Positions 9,295 to 41,170 of a DNA stretch of 64,000 nt are shown here, one piece after another. Position 1 is the stretch's first letter. Each line of letters begins with the position of its first letter. Below the pieces are notes generated by a model. The model saw nothing but the letters and a program-made list of their open reading frames with translations, did not search any database and was not told the DNA's origin. Location of the stretch: the IMG/VR virus record IMGVR_UViG_2563366960_000002; one strand, written 5' to 3'. A program made the translations under genes and the position numbers. This DNA comes from a virus (Duplodnaviria; Heunggongvirae; Uroviricota; Caudoviricetes).

Positions 9295-10512
9295 ATGCCA
9301 ACTGAATATGCTCGCGACAACCTTGGTCGCTATCAGACCGATGGATTAAGTGCAAAAGACTTTAACAAGGTCTTCGATCTTATCCGTAAACAGCAGCGTC
9401 AGAATCGGCGAAACGCGCGGCGTACACTCACCCCAAGGATTATGGGGATGCGTAACCGCGAACTTGAGGCATTCCTCAGCCTTGGGAAAAAGAAAGATGG
9501 CACCTACTTTACGCCCGAAGATATACGCAGTTTCAACACCTCAAGGCAGGCTCATAAAACCAAATTCAAGAGCACGGTACCCGGCATTACCTATGCTCAG
9601 CTGGTGGCGCAGTCCACCAGCATTGATATAAAACGCGCTAACAACAAAGTTTCTGATGGCACAGGGATCAAAGCCGCGACATTCCTCGGGCTAAAACACA
9701 ACCTTGCATTGATATCTGTTAATGCCTCGGATGAGTCGGTCCACCAGCATCACCGTGTCAGAATTCGATTTGAGGAATGGGATAAAGCCGTTGAGGAAAT
9801 TGCTGAAGACGGTGCGAAAAAAGCCCGAATCGCTGCCGATCTCTGCAAGGGCCGGGTATCTTTCGACTGTGATTGTGGACGCCATCAATACTGGTATCGT
9901 TATATGGCCACGGCTGGTAACTATGCTGTCGCGCCGCCAAAAGAGTATGCATTCCCCAAGATCCGCAACCCTGATCTGACTGGTGTAGCCTGCAAACATG
10001 TGTTGCACGCTATGACGCGTTTTCAATCTCCCACATGGCACAAGGCCATCATTATTGCCCTGGAAAAAGCAGCTGAACAGGTGGCCTTCGGCGATGACAA
10101 GCGGAAGACAACAACCTATTTCAAAGGCGAACTGGCTAAATCACTCGCACGCAACCGGACAACAACGACGGATCAGGCTAAAGCGGCGCGTGAGTATGAG
10201 TTATATCTGAAATCTCAGGATGCATTAGGCAAAAAACTACGCGCCAAAGATAGCGCCACGGACAACGTTCGCCGGTTGTTAAAAAAAGCTCGCACCACGG
10301 CAAACAGGAAGAATGCCGAACTAAAAGCATCGCGGGTGAGGGAAGCCCAGGCTCGCGCTGAAGCCGACGCCCTCAAAAAAGCCCTGCAAACGCAGGCGAA
10401 CAACCTCATAAAGTTTTTCATAAGTCAGGGAATGGACAAGGCCGCTGCCACCGCGCAGGCGCGAAGCATTCTTGAGACACAAATTAACGAAGCCCGTAAA
10501 CGGAAAGGATAA
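9295..10512 (+). CDS. hypothetical protein with SWIM-like zinc finger and basic coiled-coil C-terminus
   Basis: 405-aa ORF; FDCDCGRHQYW...GVACKHVLHAM fits CxCxnCxH. Confidence 0.5.
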   Translation: MPTEYARDNLGRYQTDGLSAKDFNKVFDLIRKQQRQNRRNARRTLTPRIMGMRNRELEAFLSLGKKKDGTYFTPEDIRSFNTSRQAHKTKFKSTVPGITYAQLVAQSTSIDIKRANNKVSDGTGIKAATFLGLKHNLALISVNASDESVHQHHRVRIRFEEWDKAVEEIAEDGAKKARIAADLCKGRVSFDCDCGRHQYWYRYMATAGNYAVAPPKEYAFPKIRNPDLTGVACKHVLHAMTRFQSPTWHKAIIIALEKAAEQVAFGDDKRKTTTYFKGELAKSLARNRTTTTDQAKAAREYELYLKSQDALGKKLRAKDSATDNVRRLLKKARTTANRKNAELKASRVREAQARAEADALKKALQTQANNLIKFFISQGMDKAAATAQARSILETQINEARKRKG

Positions 10513-14679: not shown

Positions 14680-14981
14680 TGCGTCTCCTTTTCCCTGACT
14701 AAAAGCTCATCCAGCTTGCTTTTATGTTTGAGCACATAGCCACATATTTTTCCTTTGGAGCTAATTTGCGGAATGGAATAATATTCCGAAAATACTAATT
14801 CAGCCTTTTCTAAGACAAGTGAAACACCATAGCGCGCAACATGTCTGTCGATCATTTTTGCATCTCTGAGATTACCTTTAATTGATAGCCAGTCGTTGAG
14901 GTACATATGGTTGCGATTGGCTTTTTTCAGCATGTCGCTCAACCAATTTTTATTACGCTTAGTTAGTTTCCGTTGCATCAA
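14676..14981 (-). CDS. hypothetical small protein
   Basis: 101-aa ORF translationally coupled between ban and the glycosyltransferase. Confidence 0.4.
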   Translation of the reverse strand: MMQRKLTKRNKNWLSDMLKKANRNHMYLNDWLSIKGNLRDAKMIDRHVARYGVSLVLEKAELVFSEYYSIPQISSKGKICGYVLKHKSKLDELLVREKETQ

Positions 14982-16342
14982 TAATCCTCTTGCCAGTCAG
15001 CACCAGCATAGTTATCAAACCGTGAGTATTGGCCGTTAAAAGCCAATCTCACCGTGCCAATTGGGCCATTTCGTTGCTTACCGATAATCACCTCGGCAAT
15101 GCCCTTCATTTCGCTATCCGGGTGATAAACTTCGTCGCGATACAGAAACATGATCAGGTCTGCGTCCTGCTCAATTGCTCCTGATTCACGTAAATCTGAA
15201 TTTACCGGACGTTTGTCCGCACGCTGTTCAAGCGATCGATTAAGTTGTGACAATGCCACCACCGGTACTTGTAATTCCTTCGCCAACGCCTTCAGTGAGC
15301 GAGAAATCTCGGCAATTTCCAGCGTTCGGTTATCTTGCAGCTCGGGGACGCGCATAAGTTGCAGGTAGTCGATCATAATCATGCTCAAACCACCATTTTC
15401 TTTATAAACACGACGAGCGCGGGAACGTAGCTCTGTCGGCGTCAGGGCGCTTGAGTCATCAATAAAAATATTCTGCTTGTCCAACAGAATCCCCATTGCG
15501 CCAGAAACCCGCGCCCAATCCTCGTCGTTAAGTTGCCCTGTTCGAATACGAGTCTGATCAACGCGTGCAAGAGAAGCCAGTGAGCGCATCATCAGCTGGT
15601 GGCTCGGCATCTCAAGGCTAAAAACCAATACGGGCTTATCGTTACGGACTGCGGCATTTTCGACGAGATTCATCGCAAACGTAGTCTTCCCCATCGATGG
15701 GCGGGCGGCGACAATAATGAGATCGGACGCCTGAAGTCCTGCCGTCTTCTTATTGAGATCGGTAAATCCGGTATCAAGCCCCGTTACACCATCATGCGGT
15801 CGCTGAAACAACTCTTCTATGCGAGATACCGTTGCATCGAGAATGCTGGCGATATCTTTTGGACCACTACCGCTCTTTTGTCGTTTTTCAGCTATTTCAA
15901 AAACGCGGCGCTCGGCCATATCCAGCAATTCATTGCTGCCCCTGCCATCCTGCGCATATCCAGCTTCGGCTATTTCATTTGCGACGGAAATCATTTCACG
16001 AACAACCGCGCGTTCACGAACGATATCCGCATAAGCACAAATATTTGCCGCGCTGGGCGTGTTCTTTGACATCTCCGCAAGGTACGCAAAACCACCGGCG
16101 CGTTCTAATTTACCGTTCTGTTCAAGTGCTTCAGCAAGTGTTATCAAATCAATCGGTTTGCCATGACTTAATAACCTCTCCATCTCACTGAAAATTTCAC
16201 GATGAGCACTGGTATAAAAATCATCAGCAACTATACGATCTGCAACTTCATCCCAGCGGCAGTTATCAAGCATTAAGCCACCAAGTACAGCTTGTTCTGC
16301 ACTAAGGGAATTTGGCATGGATTCAAGAGGGGATGCAGACAT
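14978..16342 (-). CDS. ban: DnaB-family replicative helicase (P1 Ban-like)
   Basis: N-terminal AEQAVLGGLMLD, Walker A ARPSMGKTTFAMN, Walker B IMIDYLQL; start set at ATG 16342 after GGTGGAG RBS (track ORF begins at GTG 16348). Confidence 0.85.
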   Translation of the reverse strand: MSASPLESMPNSLSAEQAVLGGLMLDNCRWDEVADRIVADDFYTSAHREIFSEMERLLSHGKPIDLITLAEALEQNGKLERAGGFAYLAEMSKNTPSAANICAYADIVRERAVVREMISVANEIAEAGYAQDGRGSNELLDMAERRVFEIAEKRQKSGSGPKDIASILDATVSRIEELFQRPHDGVTGLDTGFTDLNKKTAGLQASDLIIVAARPSMGKTTFAMNLVENAAVRNDKPVLVFSLEMPSHQLMMRSLASLARVDQTRIRTGQLNDEDWARVSGAMGILLDKQNIFIDDSSALTPTELRSRARRVYKENGGLSMIMIDYLQLMRVPELQDNRTLEIAEISRSLKALAKELQVPVVALSQLNRSLEQRADKRPVNSDLRESGAIEQDADLIMFLYRDEVYHPDSEMKGIAEVIIGKQRNGPIGTVRLAFNGQYSRFDNYAGADWQEDY

Positions 16343-16627
16343 TAGCACTCCACCCAGGCGTGCTGAATGTCAGATATAATCGGCATACTCAAATCACTCC
16401 TAACGATATGAGTCATCACCAGAAAATCAGGATTAATGCGCCGGACTCTTCCCGGCTGTCACACCGAATCGCCAGGATGGTGAGTCCCTGTATCCGCTAT
16501 CCCTCCAACGGTGACTTGCACATTCCGGCTACCTGGTTTGTTGCCTGAGCTAGGGGAAAAGGTAACCCCTTTAACGTCACCAGACCGCTAACGACGCATG
16601 TGCCAGACGCCGTGTTACAACCAAATA

Positions 16628-16703
16628 TGGTGGCCCCTACCGGACTTGAACCGGTGACCGTGCGATTATGAGTCGCCAGCTCTAACCACTGAGCTAAAGG
16701 GCC
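16628..16703 (-). tRNA. tRNA-Ile (anticodon CAU, ileX-like)
   Basis: Cloverleaf read by eye: acceptor GGCCCTT/AGGGGCC, D-arm GCTC-AGTGGTTA-GAGC, anticodon loop CTCATAA, T-loop TTCAAGT, encoded CCA; near-identical to E. coli ileX as recalled. Confidence 0.8.
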
Positions 16704-16730
16704 GGATTACTGCCAATTTTGCTTACGCTT

Positions 16731-17558
16731 TTATTTCACCGGAACAAACGGAACAGCGGCATTACTGGTCATATACTGCGGTAATGTACCGTTCCATTTG
16801 TTGATCGCTTCCAACTCCATAACACCGGGGTTCTGGCGCAGAGCTTCACCACGTAAACGAATGGCATCAGCTTCGGCCTGGGCTTTTGTGCGAATAGCAT
16901 CAGCCTGTCCGGCAGCTTCCGCGCGCAGCATGTTGGCCTCTGCTTCACGTTGTTTGACCTCTTGCTCGCGTTGCAGGGTTTTTTGGTTTGCCGTAACTTT
17001 GGCGTTAATACTGTCAATAACTGTTGGCGGATATTCTGGCTTACCTACATAAGAGAGGCTCATCACCTGAATGCCGATTGGCGTCATTTCTTCCTGAATG
17101 TCTTTAAGGGCTGCATCAAGCAATTCAGATTTGCCACCGTCGATAAATTTGTCGGTGGTCATTTTGCTGGCTAACCGGTTCAGAGCATCTGCAACCTTCT
17201 GGCGTAGATCGGTATCAGTAATATCATCTACACCTTTGCGATAGGTCTGAAATACCGTTGTGACTTTTGCTGGATCAACCTTGTAGGCTACGCCGATGTG
17301 GTAACCAATGGTTGTTCCGTCGCTCATCTGGAAGCTGAACGGCTCATCGTATGTCTTCATTTGCTTAAAGGTCGGGAAGATATAAACTTCAGTATTCAAG
17401 CCTGTCCAGTAGCGACCAACACCAACTACTTCACCGATACCTTTATCATCCCCCAGCTTATTTACTTTGATCCCTACGTTACCTGGCTCTACCCGATCGC
17501 ATCCGGTCAGACATAAAGAACCCAAAATAATCGCTGCACTAATCAACGTTTTTTTCAT
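16731..17558 (-). CDS. plp: SPFH/band-7 domain lipoprotein (P1 Plp-like)
   Basis: 275-aa ORF; signal peptide with lipobox LTGC; band-7 core and C-terminal coiled coil. Confidence 0.65.
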   Translation of the reverse strand: MKKTLISAAIILGSLCLTGCDRVEPGNVGIKVNKLGDDKGIGEVVGVGRYWTGLNTEVYIFPTFKQMKTYDEPFSFQMSDGTTIGYHIGVAYKVDPAKVTTVFQTYRKGVDDITDTDLRQKVADALNRLASKMTTDKFIDGGKSELLDAALKDIQEEMTPIGIQVMSLSYVGKPEYPPTVIDSINAKVTANQKTLQREQEVKQREAEANMLRAEAAGQADAIRTKAQAEADAIRLRGEALRQNPGVMELEAINKWNGTLPQYMTSNAAVPFVPVK

Positions 17559-17775
17559 TAATTAATTTCCTGGTTTTTTCACGAAAAAAGACTACTGCGA
17601 AAGCCGGGTAAATGAGCGCGAGAAGGACTCCCAACAATACAAGTATTGTGCTGTTAGATGAGATCATATTTGGCAAAAGCCAAACATACAGAACCAGTGA
17701 CACAATCAAACAGAGGACGGCATAAATATATAACCGCACCCATAGCGTTCGACATTTGTTCGGATTGTTCTGCAT
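17539..17775 (-). CDS. small membrane protein (P1 Upl-like)
   Basis: 78-aa ORF with two hydrophobic helices, overlaps plp start. Confidence 0.5.
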   Translation of the reverse strand: MQNNPNKCRTLWVRLYIYAVLCLIVSLVLYVWLLPNMISSNSTILVLLGVLLALIYPAFAVVFFREKTRKLINEKNVD

Positions 17776-17931
17776 CCTCTCACTCCATTATTTAACGAAT
17801 AAAAAAGCTGCGGTGCCGGGTACCTCCCGGTGTCCTTTGGCTGGTTATCCACCGTGGACGGGGAAACAAGGAGAAATGAATGGACTGATATAACCATTTC
17901 CCCGCGTGCGCTTAGCCGCATTCACCGCAAT

Positions 17932-18031
17932 GGTAAGAGCACTTGGCTGGCTGGGCGGCGATGACGCCTGTATGCATTTGGTGATCCGGTTCTGCTTCCG
18001 GCATTCGCTTAATTAGCCAAATACTCTTAAC
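17932..18031 (-). repeat. GGTAAGAGCA-initiated structured element directly 3' of tRNA-Ser (imperfect partner TACTCTTAAC)
   Basis: Direct read; shares terminal motif with elements at 18497 and 19038. Confidence 0.3.
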
Positions 18032-18038
18032 GTTGCGC

Positions 18039-18125
18039 TGGCGGAGAGTAATGGAATCGAACCATCATCGCTTGCGCTATGGGACGGTTTTCAAGACCGC
18101 TTGAGCACCATGCTCCCTACTCTCC
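18039..18125 (-). tRNA. tRNA-Ser (anticodon UGA), class II with long variable arm
   Basis: Acceptor GGAGAGT/ACTCTCC, anticodon arm GCGGT-CTTGAAA-ACCGT, T-loop TTCGATT, encoded CCA; D-arm spacing non-canonical, needs covariance-model check. Confidence 0.65.
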
Positions 18126-18259
18126 CGTTATTGTGGCGACCGGTGCTGATCTCCGGCTTGCGGTTATTTCAGACTCTCACGGGCGTTTAATTGCCCCGCC
18201 GAACAGCTCTTTTCCGCAATAGCTGCAATGTCTTTCGCGCATCAGCCTGCGCATTCACC

Positions 18260-18350
18260 ACAACGTTGAGAACACTGGTTGTCACGCGCAACGCAACATT
18301 TATTCGTAGATTGGGATATGACCCCGTTACGCCAGTGTTCTCAACGTTGT
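18260..18350. repeat. perfect 19-bp inverted repeat ACAACGTTGAGAACACTGG / CCAGTGTTCTCAACGTTGT around a 53-nt spacer
   Basis: Direct read, arms 18260..18278 and 18332..18350. Confidence 0.7.
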
Positions 18351-18496
18351 AGTGCCGGTTACGGTTCCGGCCAGGCCTCTTCCTCAACGGGGTGTTCTCC
18401 ATACGGACTACCGTTTATTGGTCGTTCCTGCGGTTTATGTTGTGAAGCCAGATGCTTATCTTCTGGTTGCTTCAAAGAGCTGCACTTCATCACAAC

Positions 18497-18570
18497 GGTA
18501 AGAGCATTTATGGCTCGCATCGCGGGAAAAAGCCCACGGTAGAGAGTCGAACTCTACAAATGCTCTTACC
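18497..18570 (-). repeat. tRNA-sized palindromic element (13-bp terminal stem GGTAAGAGCATTT/AAATGCTCTTACC, internal T-arm-like hairpin) directly 3' of tRNA-Thr
   Basis: Direct read; no full cloverleaf could be drawn. Confidence 0.45.
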
Positions 18571-18578
18571 TGTTGTGT

Positions 18579-18654
18579 TGGTGCCGGTTAACGGGATCGA
18601 ACCGCTGACCATTCGCTTACAAAGCGACTGCTCTACCAACTGAGCTAAACCGGC
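18579..18654 (-). tRNA. tRNA-Thr (anticodon UGU)
   Basis: Acceptor GCCGGTT/AACCGGC, D-arm GCTC-AGTTGGTA-GAGC, anticodon loop TTTGTAA, T-loop TTCGATC, encoded CCA. Confidence 0.8.
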
Positions 18655-18658
18655 AATT

Positions 18659-18745
18659 TGGTGGGGAGTGATGGAGTCGAACCACCCGAGTCGCAATGAC
18701 AGTAGATTTACAGTCTACCCCGCTACCCCTACGGACTAACTCCCC
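18659..18745 (-). tRNA. tRNA-Tyr (anticodon GUA), class II
   Basis: Anticodon arm GTAGA-CTGTAAA-TCTAC and variable arm nearly identical to E. coli tRNA-Tyr as recalled; acceptor GGGGAGT/ACTCCCC; D-arm spacing irregular. Confidence 0.65.
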
Positions 18746-18750
18746 TAAAT

Positions 18751-18827
18751 TGGCGATGGTGGGTGGATTCGAACCACCGACCGACAGCTTAGAAGGCTGC
18801 TGCTCTATCCTACTGAGCTACACCATC
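18751..18827 (-). tRNA. tRNA-Arg (anticodon UCU)
   Basis: Acceptor GATGGTG/CACCATC, D-arm GCTC-AGTAGGATA-GAGC, anticodon arm GCAGC-CTTCTAA-GCTGT, T-arm GGTGG-TTCGAAT-CCACC, encoded CCA. Confidence 0.8.
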
Positions 18828-19037
18828 ACTTGCCGGGTACGTCTCCGGCGAGGGCTTCCACCTCCGTATGCTTTTCGGCGCACCGCGCCCTGGCTGCAAT
18901 TCGGTAACAGGGGATGCACAACCCTGGCTTCCAACGTGATTAGCGCCTTCAGCATGACGGGATATACCCGTAGTAGGACGTTATCTTCAAATTGCTAAAA
19001 GCAATTGCTGTTACGCAGAATGAAAAAGGACGTAACA

Positions 19038-19105
19038 GGTAAGGACGCTGACCAAAAAGATGGCCCCTTCTCGCTCATCTGGTTAATCGAACCAGCGCCC
19101 TTACC
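19038..19105. repeat. palindromic element GGTAAGGACGC...GCGCCCTTACC with internal CTGG-TTAATCGAA-CCAG hairpin
   Basis: Direct read; terminal motif shared with 18497..18570. Confidence 0.4.
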
Positions 19106-19496
19106 TGTTGTGCCTCCCCGTTCCCTAATACACAGACGGGGACACTCTGCGGTCGATTTTTTGACGGGGGACGACTCATACCCCGTGGCGTCTGGCTTCT
19201 TAGGCCGCTACCATCATCAGATCATCGTTTGCATTTACTTTAATGGTCAGTTTCTAAACCGCCGCAAAGTCGCTAACCATGACGAAAACCCTGAAAAAAA
19301 CGCCCACCCGAAGATGGGCAAACTGGAAGCTCGTAACGCACTTCGGTGTTGCCACTTAGGCGTATGGTCAACCTGGCAACTCGGCGTCATGATGGGGAAG
19401 GAGTCACTACCCCGCCATACTTGCCGCCGCGCCTGTCGCGGCTAACAGCTAAATCGCTCTATAAATCACGATTCATTGATGCGATATTACACTAAT

Positions 19497-19513
19497 AAAT
19501 TTATTAGAGCAAT
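19497..19513 (-). promoter_or_regulatory. C1-type operator, perfect 17/17 ATTGCTCTAATAAATTT, overlapping the last codons and stop of dmt
   Basis: Direct read; -35-like TTGCTC inside, TAATAT 17 bp downstream on minus strand; a degenerate inverted site follows at 19451..19469. Confidence 0.7.
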
Positions 19514-40879: not shown

Positions 40880-41090
40880 GGTTCCAATCTCAATGGCGGT
40901 AGCACTGACTGGGTTGGAACTACCGGCGCAAAAGGGAACCGGCCTGCCTTTCGGCAGCCCAGCCAGCACTACCATTGATCTCGGAGCTATGTGCTACGTA
41001 TGGCTGTGCGATGGCATGACACAAAAAAGACGCTTTTGGCGTCTGTGTCGCCTTTTGCATTATCCGGGGTTCCAATCCCGGCATCCGTTT
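40880..41090 (-). ncRNA. c4-type antisense RNA region with complementary target elements (boundaries approximate)
   Basis: Leader between operator/promoter and icd contains GGTAGTTCCAACC complementary to GGATTGGAACC upstream and GATTGGAACCTC downstream; the latter sits in a hairpin next to the icd RBS. Confidence 0.4.
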
Positions 41091-41170
41091 TACTAAGATG
41101 CCTGTTTAGGATAAACCGAAAATGCATTAGCACGCAAGAAAGTTAATGTAGCATATGAAGCTAAAAAAAC

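Follow-up and report, generated by a model that had tools for sequence, protein, structure and literature searches.

Five tRNA genes, probably a cassette-like codon supplement, in the ban operon leader of a P1-like phage-plasmid

The closest described counterpart of the locus analyzed here is the ban operon of phage P1, in which (NC_005856) the order from the dmt end is Pban/Oban, a 'dicF-like region', the transfer RNA (tRNA) genes trnA (Asn) and trnT (Thr), plp/upl, tciA/B/C, trnI (tRNA-Ile2) and ban, on one strand throughout apart from plp and upl. We analyzed the corresponding locus in a 64,000-nucleotide (nt) stretch of phage DNA (IMG/VR record IMGVR_UViG_2563366960_000002), referred to below as the window, where five tRNA genes occupy the minus strand between positions 16628 and 18827. 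The window is 100% identical to plasmid pAVS0578-B of Escherichia coli AVS0578 (NZ_CP124376.1), a P1-like phage-plasmid of 94,894 bp whose source was a Swiss river or lake. The locus shares with P1 its position and strand, Pban/Oban, the flanks of the first tRNA slot, an identical Ile2 gene and a homologous Thr gene. It differs in that a chimeric tRNA-Arg(UCU) takes the place of tRNA-Asn, tRNA-Tyr and tRNA-Ser are added, the Thr gene is of another anticodon-stem allele, and a gene pair including an SPFH gene replaces tciA/B/C and plp/upl. An earlier note on this DNA credited canonical P1 with three tRNAs and regarded the present set as expanded; both statements are correct, P1 and RCS47 having Asn-Thr-Ile2 and the window Arg-Tyr-Thr-Ser-Ile2.

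The tRNA clusters of the virulent coliphages T5 and T4/T6 have in common with the window the variable and T arms of tRNA-Tyr and, in T5 tRNA-Ser1, the D-arm architecture of tRNA-Ser. The T5 annotation also lists 'tRNA-like stable RNAs with unknown functions' (RNA1, RNA2, RNA3 and others) between the tRNAs, and between the window tRNAs there are likewise structured non-tRNA RNAs with T-loop-like arms. In contrast to these clusters, the array described here is small (2–5 genes in the group), belongs to a temperate phage-plasmid with a lysogenic repressor and has no homing endonuclease genes between the tRNAs, and its Thr, Arg and Ile2 genes are only 64–68% identical to those of T5. The ileZ, argN and argO genes downstream of Q in lambdoid and Stx prophages have the same targets (AUA and AGA/AGG) and also lie in a long non-coding leader of a regulated operon, and the Q-to-holin and early-left leaders of lambdoid prophages share the hairpin and small RNA (sRNA) modules that flank the window tRNAs. 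However, the window Arg(UCU) gene is not the Stx-phage gene, the replicon is a different one, and control is by C1 rather than by Q antitermination. Anti-defense phage tRNAs have also been described, namely T5 tRNA-Tyr, which acts against retron-Eco7/Septu (PMC13096335), T5 tRNA-Lys, which acts against PARIS (PMC11464382), and Bas32 tRNA-Thr(UGU), which acts against P2 OLD (bioRxiv 10.64898/2026.07.10.737580). In sequence, the window resembles these systems in a tRNA-Tyr with the T5 variable arm and a tRNA-Thr with the anticodon of the OLD target; it has no tRNA-Lys, and its tRNA-Thr is not a close homolog of T5-type tRNA-Thr.

When applied to the whole window, ARAGORN called exactly five tRNA genes, all on the minus strand: tRNA-Arg(UCU) in slot 1 (18751..18827), tRNA-Tyr(GUA) in slot 2 (18659..18745), tRNA-Thr(UGU) in slot 3 (18579..18654), tRNA-Ser(UGA) in slot 4 (18039..18125) and tRNA-Ile2, with the anticodon CAU, in slot 5 (16628..16703). 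The earlier note had placed five minus-strand tRNAs with encoded CCA at exactly these coordinates, and CCA is indeed encoded by all five genes. RefSeq already annotates the five on pAVS0578-B (tRNA-Ile, -Ser, -Thr, -Tyr and -Arg), and no further tRNA exists in the 31 kb of the plasmid that the window does not cover. Sequence inspection and covariance-model alignments revealed the canonical features of elongator tRNAs in every gene: an intact 7-bp acceptor stem, a 7-nt anticodon loop with U33, a T loop conforming to UUCRANY, and a discriminator followed by the 3' CCA. Four of the five pass the gathering score (29 bits) of RF00005, the general Rfam tRNA model, with 72.1 bits for Arg, 67.2 for Thr, 64.7 for Ile2 and 41.9 for Tyr. 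As a phage tRNA supplement, the five genes are nothing out of the ordinary, and this variant is both recurrent and already annotated. We propose, with a probability of about 0.7, that all five are functional, that the P1-like phage-plasmid holds them as a cassette-like array in its C1-repressed ban operon, and that they decode the codons most overused by the phage. The finding of the earlier note is real, and its interpretation is supported in outline.

Codon usage was compared between 45 long open reading frames (ORFs) of the window (15,352 codons) and 12,125 codons of a 50-kb K-12 stretch. Ranked by the window/host ratio, the top five of 61 codons are ATA (3.6-fold), AGG (3.1-fold), ACA (2.4-fold), TCA (1.8-fold) and AGA (1.8-fold), which are exactly the codons read by Ile2, Arg(UCU), Thr(UGU) and Ser(UGA). 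AAT, the codon of the P1 tRNA-Asn, ranks sixth and TAT twelfth, and TAC is not enriched. A second comparison used annotated coding sequences, with the morphogenesis and lysis block taken as late genes. Per 1000 codons, ATA occurs 12.5 times in late genes, 8.3 times in other phage genes and 2.8 times in the host; the corresponding values are 4.6, 3.4 and 0.7 for AGG, 22.5, 14.2 and 7.0 for ACA, 17.3, 10.6 and 7.4 for TCA, and 5.7, 4.2 and 2.3 for AGA. Tyr codons total 30.7 per 1000 in late genes versus 24.5 in the host. Cognate codons are commoner in the phage than in the host for each of the tRNAs, although weakly so for Tyr, and codon supply explains four of the five well but not tRNA-Tyr. 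The codon supplementation suggested in the earlier note is accordingly supported by computation for Ile2, Arg, Thr and Ser, with codon ranks 1–5 and a larger excess in late genes, but not for Tyr.

The gene in slot 5 is a tRNA-Ile2 of the lysidine type. It is identical to P1 trnI (76/76), which is annotated as tRNA-Ile2, and 89.5% identical to E. coli K-12 ileX, with an identical anticodon arm; its kinship is with ileX/ileY and not with metT/metY. The pairs C4-G69 and C5-G68 and the ileX anticodon arm, which are determinants for TilS, are all present. ARAGORN labels the gene tRNA-Met from its anticodon alone, and were it an elongator tRNA-Met, AUA would not be covered; given the features just listed, the RefSeq call of tRNA-Ile and the position of ATA as the most phage-enriched codon, this assignment is scarcely credible. 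The tRNA-Thr in slot 3 (allele A) is one of two alleles found in P1-like loci, whose anticodon stems differ at nearly every position: GUCGC/GCGAA with G27.A43 and U32 in the window, CCUGC/GCAGG with C32 in P1. Both differ from the anticodon stem of the host, and the window-type allele was found only together with tRNA-Tyr (7/7 cases).

Slot 1 is occupied in P1-like loci by either tRNA-Asn(GUU) or tRNA-Arg(UCU), and the flanks, acceptor stem (GAUGGUG/CACCAUC, then G-CCA), D stem and T arm of the two are identical. The window gene departs from the second Asn allele only in the D-loop, where CGGT is replaced by TAGGAT, and in the 17-nt anticodon arm. In E. coli, the elements by which arginyl-tRNA synthetase (ArgRS) recognizes its tRNA are A20 in the D-loop and the anticodon, and the chimera, as read from these alignments, has acquired exactly the parts that carry arginine identity. 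The window allele occurs in no deposited phage genome (50,697 phage records); its best full-length match among these records is a tRNA-Asn, at 83% identity, and the 80–84% identity to the Stx-phage Arg gene extends over the tRNA body only.

The earlier note had remarked on an irregular spacing between the acceptor stem and the D arm in Ser and Tyr and had considered decay as its cause. The spacing is real. In tRNA-Ser, a type II tRNA with a compact, phage-type D arm, three connecting nucleotides (A-G-G) precede a D stem of 4 bp (GAGC/GCUC) that closes a loop of 5 nt, and the 5' part of the molecule reads GGAGAGU-AGG-GAGC-AUGGU-GCUC-AA; its acceptor stem is GGAGAGU/ACUCUCC, its anticodon loop CUUGAAA and its T loop UUCGAUU, followed by G-CCA. 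For tRNA-Tyr, the covariance-model alignment requires a 2-nt insertion before the D stem. Decay does not explain this architecture, which is shared by T5 tRNA-Ser1, T5 tRNA-Tyr and the Ser(UGA) gene of a distant phage contig, L109. T5 tRNA-Ser1(UGA), 71% identical to the window gene overall, begins GGAAGGU-AGG-GCGU-AGUGGU-ACGC-AA, with the same connector, a 4-bp D stem of different sequence and a small loop, and the L109 gene has the same layout with compensatory changes in the D stem (GCUA/UAGC). Both window genes combine the long variable arm and the compact, shifted D arm of T5-type type II tRNAs, and both are 95–100% conserved across many plasmids. According to the T5 record, tRNA-Ser1 and tRNA-Tyr turn into effective suppressors after a change of anticodon, which implies that both are processed and charged in vivo.

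RefSeq labels near-identical Ser copies of other plasmids 'tRNA-OTHER', and the best Rfam match of the window gene is the tRNA-Sec model (41.8 bits, below the threshold of 47). For these reasons a role as a suppressor or recoding tRNA was considered and rejected: the 'tRNA-OTHER' loci (n = 4) all keep UGA and differ only at one D-stem and one variable-arm position. Contig L109 carries a cluster of six tRNAs (9203–9861), one of which has a CUA anticodon ('Pyl' according to ARAGORN) and is a possible amber suppressor.

tRNA-Tyr is of the T4/T5 phage type and, in the alignment of P1-like loci, forms a clean tRNA-sized insertion (a 92-nt indel). It is 90–93% identical to the tRNA-Tyr of T4-like and rV5-like phages, 83–84% to that of T5 and 69% to host tyrU. 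The window, T5 and the T4-like phage ECML-134 agree at every position of a 30-nt block (TGTCATTGCGACTCGGGTGGTTCGACTCCA) that spans the variable arm and the larger part of the T arm; the host counterpart of this block reads CGTCAC--AGACTTCGAAGGTTCGAATCCTT. T5 tRNA-Tyr is reported to resist cleavage by retron-Eco7 owing to its distinctive variable loop (PMC13096335), and the window gene has a variable loop like that of T5 and unlike that of the host. Our analysis suggests that tRNA-Tyr most likely serves as a nuclease-resistant stand-in when PtuAB-type defenses (retron-Eco7, Septu) cut the host tRNA-Tyr. The anticodon-nuclease counter-defense proposed in the earlier note receives no support as far as an anticodon nuclease is concerned, and only indirect support from the arms shared with the T5 tRNA-Tyr reported as resistant. 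For tRNA-Thr, it has been reported that P2 OLD cuts host Thr(UGU) after nucleotides 27–29 and that phage Thr(UGU) restores the plating of some phages (bioRxiv 10.64898/2026.07.10.737580); the P1-like tRNA-Thr is only 66% identical to T5 tRNA-Thr.

The distribution of tRNA sets was surveyed in IMG/VR with a 30-mer upstream of slot 1 that is invariant in seven aligned loci. Of 111 P1-like contigs retrieved, 62 had at least 3.5 kb downstream and were analyzed with ARAGORN. Eight arrangements of two to five tRNAs were found. Asn-Thr-Ile2 predominates (37/62 contigs), followed by Asn-Thr-Ser-Ile2 and Asn-Tyr-Thr-Ile2 (6/62 each) and by the window set, Arg-Tyr-Thr-Ser-Ile2 (5/62, ~8%); Arg-Thr-Ser-Ile2, Asn-Ser-Ile2, Asn-Ile2 and Asn-Tyr-Thr-Ser-Ile2 account for 2/62 each. 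Ile2 is present in all 62. Among the best 60 RefSeq matches to window positions 18000–18900 in complete E. coli genomes, 27 carry Ser, Tyr, Arg and Thr and another 27 carry Ser, Arg and Thr. The five-tRNA set is therefore expanded relative to P1 and is a recurrent minority variant, neither unique nor universal in the group, universality being the observation that the earlier note had named as fatal to its view.

The array varies among relatives both by the presence or absence of whole tRNAs and by the replacement of parts inside a tRNA. Module-by-module BLAST comparison revealed a mosaic throughout the interval: modules have been shuffled among relatives, being present in some, missing from others or placed in another order. 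Several of the breaks fall where only a short match to a hairpin arm remains. The Asn-Ile2 arrangements (e.g., contigs L154 and L199) include at least one gene in which the 5' half of tRNA-Asn is fused to the 3' half of tRNA-Thr at a shared GGTC, with acceptor strands that no longer match. This deletion by recombination between neighboring tRNAs demonstrates recombination within tRNAs.

All five genes lie between the C1-controlled promoter Pban and ban, on the strand of ban. The start of the operon is marked by a bivalent C1 repressor operator (Oban a/b) that overlaps Pban (19486..19513, minus strand), identified from the operator consensus and the P1 alignment: the consensus ATTGCTCTAATAAATTT is matched exactly at 19497–19513(-), an overlapping copy with two mismatches lies at 19486–19502(+), and the Pban/Oban region can be aligned nearly base for base with its annotated P1 counterpart. 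The counterpart of the P1 'dicF-like region', with coordinates transferred from the P1 annotation by alignment, follows at 19292..19386(-), and the distal gene of the operon is ban, encoding a DnaB-like replicative helicase (14978..16342, minus strand; RefSeq and P1 map). As Pban/Oban and ban are conserved around them, the tRNAs are, on this sequence evidence, part of a leader kept off by the lysogenic repressor. A sigma-70 promoter scan of 16300–19600 returned no sites and also missed the conserved Pban, and it thus says nothing about internal promoters. Literature searches on the tRNAs of the P1 ban operon and on tRNA variation among P1-like elements yielded nothing specific.

Two protein genes, assigned from the ORF list, Pfam and the P1 map, lie between Ser and Ile2 (16731..17775, minus strand). 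The one at 16731–17558 encodes the SPFH/Band 7 protein of 275 amino acids (Pfam Band_7, E = 9.7e-31), and a small membrane ORF of 78 amino acids (17539–17775) overlaps it. The SPFH gene is also found in Stx, phiP27 and P88 prophages, where it is labeled 'serine protease/lipoprotein'. In the P1-like relative pE2863-2 (NZ_AP018804.1), a gene for a 'Thoeris anti-defense Tad2 family protein' (113–688 of locus L008) lies just downstream of trnI; accessory or anti-defense genes may have a hot spot at this end of the ban leader.

The tRNA strand also contains four long hairpins of one family, with stems of 17–23 bp, conserved arms and variable interiors. Hairpin E1 (19034..19109, minus strand; minimum free energy (MFE) -45.7 kcal/mol, z = -5.3), detected as an inverted repeat, has a 17-bp outer stem enclosing a degenerate T-arm-like sequence (GCUGGUUCGAUUAACCAG). 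E2 (18488..18578, minus strand; MFE -44.4 kcal/mol, z = -7.0) begins at the base after the CCA of tRNA-Thr and encloses a perfect T-arm-like hairpin, GUAGAG-UUCGACU-CUCUAC. Its outer arms, ACAACAGGUAAGrG ... CyCUUACCGUUGUG, are kept in 7/7 aligned P1-like loci, and its interior occurs there in three unrelated versions, two of them with T-arm-like hairpins; the element is also found between Q and the holin gene of a lambdoid prophage. E3 (18256..18354, minus strand; MFE -55.9 kcal/mol, z = -6.3), again an inverted repeat, has a 23-bp stem that is 96% complementary. E4 (17924..18038, minus strand; MFE -50.6 kcal/mol, z = -2.5), recognized through the direct-repeat family of the 3' arm, is a degenerate member that begins at the base after the CCA of tRNA-Ser and travels with Ser in every Ser-containing representative locus. 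Each tRNA cluster is followed directly by a conserved long hairpin. Lambdoid prophages also contain these elements (Q-to-holin interval and early-left leader), there as flanks of other RNA modules, including the tag module described below.

Rfam searches at permissive E-values produced no family for the hairpins, only spurious matches of the miRNA type. Several candidate identities were rejected: the YrlA (Y RNA-like) match in P1 coincides with the tRNAs rather than with the hairpins; on inspection, the arm ends do not conform to the RYYYAAC/GTTRRRY signature of integron attC-like sites, and an integron integrase is absent. Stems of 17–23 bp are the kind of substrate cut by RNase III, and judging from stem length the hairpins may serve both in processing by RNase III and as joints for recombination.

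Several observations weigh against our reading of the array. The A-ending codon enrichment partly reflects the lower G+C content of the phage (47.5% versus 50.3%), and the host reference for codon usage is a single 50-kb K-12 stretch rather than the genome. The extra tRNAs are dispensable, since most P1-like elements get by with Asn-Thr-Ile2. A strong intrinsic-terminator-like hairpin found by scanning at 19301–19320 closes the dicF-like counterpart and stands between Pban and the tRNAs, whose expression would require read-through or unrecognized internal promoters. Cleavage of the long hairpins by RNase III is a conjecture from their stem length. tRNA-Ser has no RF00005 match at the gathering score and carries an A.G mismatch in the variable-arm stem, a minority allele at a position where U.G is commonest and a perfect C-G pair also occurs; the 'tRNA-OTHER' labels of its near-identical copies point the same way. 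The covariance-model check foreseen in the earlier note thus has a divided outcome, Tyr being accepted and Ser falling below the gathering score, although the latter is called by both ARAGORN and RefSeq.

The doubts about Ser bear on a view in which the extra tRNAs are hitch-hiking mosaic debris in a tolerant non-coding leader, with some of them, Ser above all, non-functional or decaying. The shuffled mosaic structure of the region, the existence of fusion tRNAs and the 60% of relatives without extra tRNAs would all be expected of such debris. However, all five genes have kept intact acceptor stems, anticodon loops with U33, T loops and CCA, Ser and Tyr are conserved and match the T5 architecture, and the Arg chimera has gained exactly the arginine-identity parts, which random debris would not do. 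We consider this view very unlikely. The array could, alternatively, be mainly a counter-defense kit in which each tRNA is a cleavage-resistant stand-in for a targeted host tRNA and the codon match is secondary, with PtuAB/Septu/retron-Eco7 as the adversary of Tyr, P2 OLD of Thr(UGU), colicin D-type nucleases of Arg, and others. This would account for the identity of the Tyr variable arm to that of the cleavage-resistant T5 tRNA-Tyr, for the bare enrichment of Tyr codons, for two Thr anticodon-stem alleles that both differ from the host tRNA cut by OLD, and for the low identity of all phage tRNAs except Ile2 to their host counterparts (64–77%); the anti-Thoeris gene beside trnI in pE2863-2 fits as well. 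A defense-only model does not predict, however, that four of the five anticodons exactly match the five most phage-enriched codons. Ile2 is close to ileX and identical to it in the anticodon arm, we found no nuclease known to target Ser(UGA) or Ile2 in E. coli, and the divergence of the Thr gene from T5 tRNA-Thr leaves no homology link to the OLD-resistant tRNA of a T5-like phage. As the principal function of the array, counter-defense is possible but rather unlikely.

If the five genes are the functional supplement that we propose, the following sequence of events can be envisaged. Once C1 repression is lifted, the operon transcript would be made. RNase P would cut the 5' ends of the tRNAs, an endonuclease, most likely RNase III, would cut the hairpins with stems of about 17–23 bp, and 3' trimming would proceed to the encoded CCA. 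With the extra tRNAs, more decoders of AUA, AGA/AGG, ACA and UCA would be available, and rare host tRNAs would then not limit the translation of late genes. tRNA-Tyr, left unexplained by codon bias, would replace host tRNA-Tyr cut by PtuAB-type defenses. Recombination, both at the conserved arms of the hairpins and inside conserved stretches of tRNA, would give rise to the different tRNA sets, drawing on modules common to T4/T5-type and lambdoid phages.

Upstream of the tRNAs, the leader contains a further module, not annotated as RNA, that resembles transfer-messenger RNA (tmRNA) (19135..19300, minus strand) and was recognized from tag conservation, sub-threshold Rfam matches and covariation. 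Positions 19232–19200 (GCA AAC GAT GAT CTG ATG ATG GTA GCG GCC TAA) encode ANDDLMMVAA followed by a stop; the E. coli SsrA tag is ANDENYALAA. The resume codon GCA is preceded by UAAAU, and no in-frame ATG, GTG or TTG lies between the upstream in-frame UAG and GCA. The module thus has the startless frame, the resume GCA, the A at -4 and the Ala-Ala-stop ending of a tmRNA tag. The A at -4 is invariant; it corresponds to A86, an essential residue of E. coli tmRNA (PMC2481249). The module further carries a D-loop-like 'GUUUUCGUCA', and its 5' 'UUUUCGUC' resembles the D-loop 'UUUCGAC' of the tRNA-like domain (TLD) of true permuted tmRNA. The stop codon lies in the loop of a small hairpin whose stem covaries; a downstream 5-bp hairpin, with 96.9% of cells paired and compensatory changes at three pairs, is followed by an H-type pseudoknot. 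The Rfam model tmRNA_permuted aligns the coding piece at 24.1 bits (threshold 47), and the tmRNA models of Rfam together score the module at 14–24 bits, far under their thresholds.

Canonical P1 and all P1-like loci examined encode exactly this tag. In further contigs of enterobacterial phages and prophages, the tag reads ANDDLMLMAA, ANDDVVLMAA or ANDDLMLAAA, with Ala-Ala-stop kept through several third-position changes, and from these comparisons the tag appears to be under selection at the peptide level. In the distant contig L109, the tRNA cluster lies ~1.2 kb upstream of an ANDDVVLMAA module (11050). In 5,426 complete E. coli genomes, the module occurs in 582 plasmid and 140 chromosomal places, the latter presumably prophages, and is nowhere annotated as RNA. 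An opposite-strand protein gene as the cause of the conservation was considered and rejected: the 86-amino-acid ORF at 19185–19445(+) has no Pfam match and is absent from the P1 annotation, and the indels of the conserved block are not multiples of three. RefSeq lists this ORF, opposite the dicF-like and tmRNA-like RNAs, as the hypothetical protein WP_162149578.1, which is probably a spurious gene call over structured RNA.

The module shares with two-piece (permuted) tmRNA the resume GCA after UAAAU, the A at -4, the ANDD...Ala-Ala-stop reading frame, the stop codon in a hairpin loop and the pseudoknot. Unlike two-piece tmRNA, it has no acceptor stem with G3.U70, no canonical T arm, acceptor 3' strand or CCA, and no partner piece in the plasmid. 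ARAGORN and Rfam found no tRNA-like domain and made no tmRNA call in the window or the rest of the plasmid, a search for a partner domain elsewhere in the plasmid was equally negative, and inspection of the flanks revealed nothing but closed hairpins. None of the five tRNAs carries the G3.U70 pair that confers alanine identity. The long hairpins were also considered as the permuted tRNA-like domain of a two-piece tmRNA, with the outer stem as P2 and the interior as T arm and closed acceptor stem; the geometry fits, but the hairpins have neither CCA nor G3.U70, and their interiors are not conserved. The tag module may be a relic, a decoy or a working template. A 2014 census of tmRNA genes in RefSeq viruses reported them only in mycobacteriophages, with Bacillus phage G and mycobacteriophage DS6A added from outside the dataset (PMC4131195), and literature searches on prophage tmRNA-like elements returned nothing specific.

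Other parts of the leader are also shared with prophages. The segment at 18131..18277(-), of about 146 nt, is common to lambdoid prophages and occurs at 97–99% identity in unannotated DNA of hundreds of E. coli chromosomes, where it is responsible for nearly all of the 768 matching chromosomal places; the copy of strain JJ1887 belongs to a lambdoid prophage and has yfdP on one side and a cI-like XRE repressor gene on the other. A putative prophage sRNA module similar to STnc100/PasD lies at 17809..17929(-), with a sub-threshold match to Rfam STnc100 (35.1 bits versus 47, E = 3.7e-5) that is also found in P1. A 2026 preprint describes the STnc100 family as prophage-borne and related to the PasD sRNAs of Stx-type prophages (bioRxiv 10.64898/2026.05.13.724894). 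Elsewhere in the window, the minus strand encodes a C4 antisense RNA (76.7 bits, 40892–40979) and an isrK-family RNA (58.5 bits, 41023–41101); this pair corresponds to the P1 immI region upstream of the icd/ant antirepressor genes and is also present in a lambdoid prophage locus (L005).

A more speculative and quite unlikely extension of these findings is that the non-coding ban leader constitutes a 'stable-RNA toolkit' with which the phage seizes control of host translation on two levels, by exchangeable tRNA cassettes and by a tmRNA-derived tag template. At the first level, the cassettes may both fill codon gaps and replace host tRNAs that defense nucleases have destroyed, as exemplified by the T5-type Tyr, the Thr alleles and the Arg built on an Asn scaffold. 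At the second, the tag template may be used, for example, in a split tmRNA, of which it would be the coding piece, or through the capture of host factors. If the template is used, P1-type and lambdoid phages would reprogram ribosome rescue and protein tagging during lytic growth. Of all parts of the locus, only the tag module and the punctuating hairpins might represent new biology.

The tRNA set itself behaves as the textbook codon-compensation model predicts. Beyond this, closely related P1-like plasmids that differ by single cassettes provide a clean natural experiment, with eight combinations of tRNAs, the exchange of Asn for Arg on one scaffold and two Thr alleles. Isogenic comparisons among them could separate the codon-supply role of phage tRNAs from their anti-nuclease role, the subject of a current debate. 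The link to the T5-type tRNA-Tyr leads to a prediction that is direct and can be tested in temperate phage-plasmids, elements that disseminate antibiotic-resistance genes among Enterobacteriaceae.

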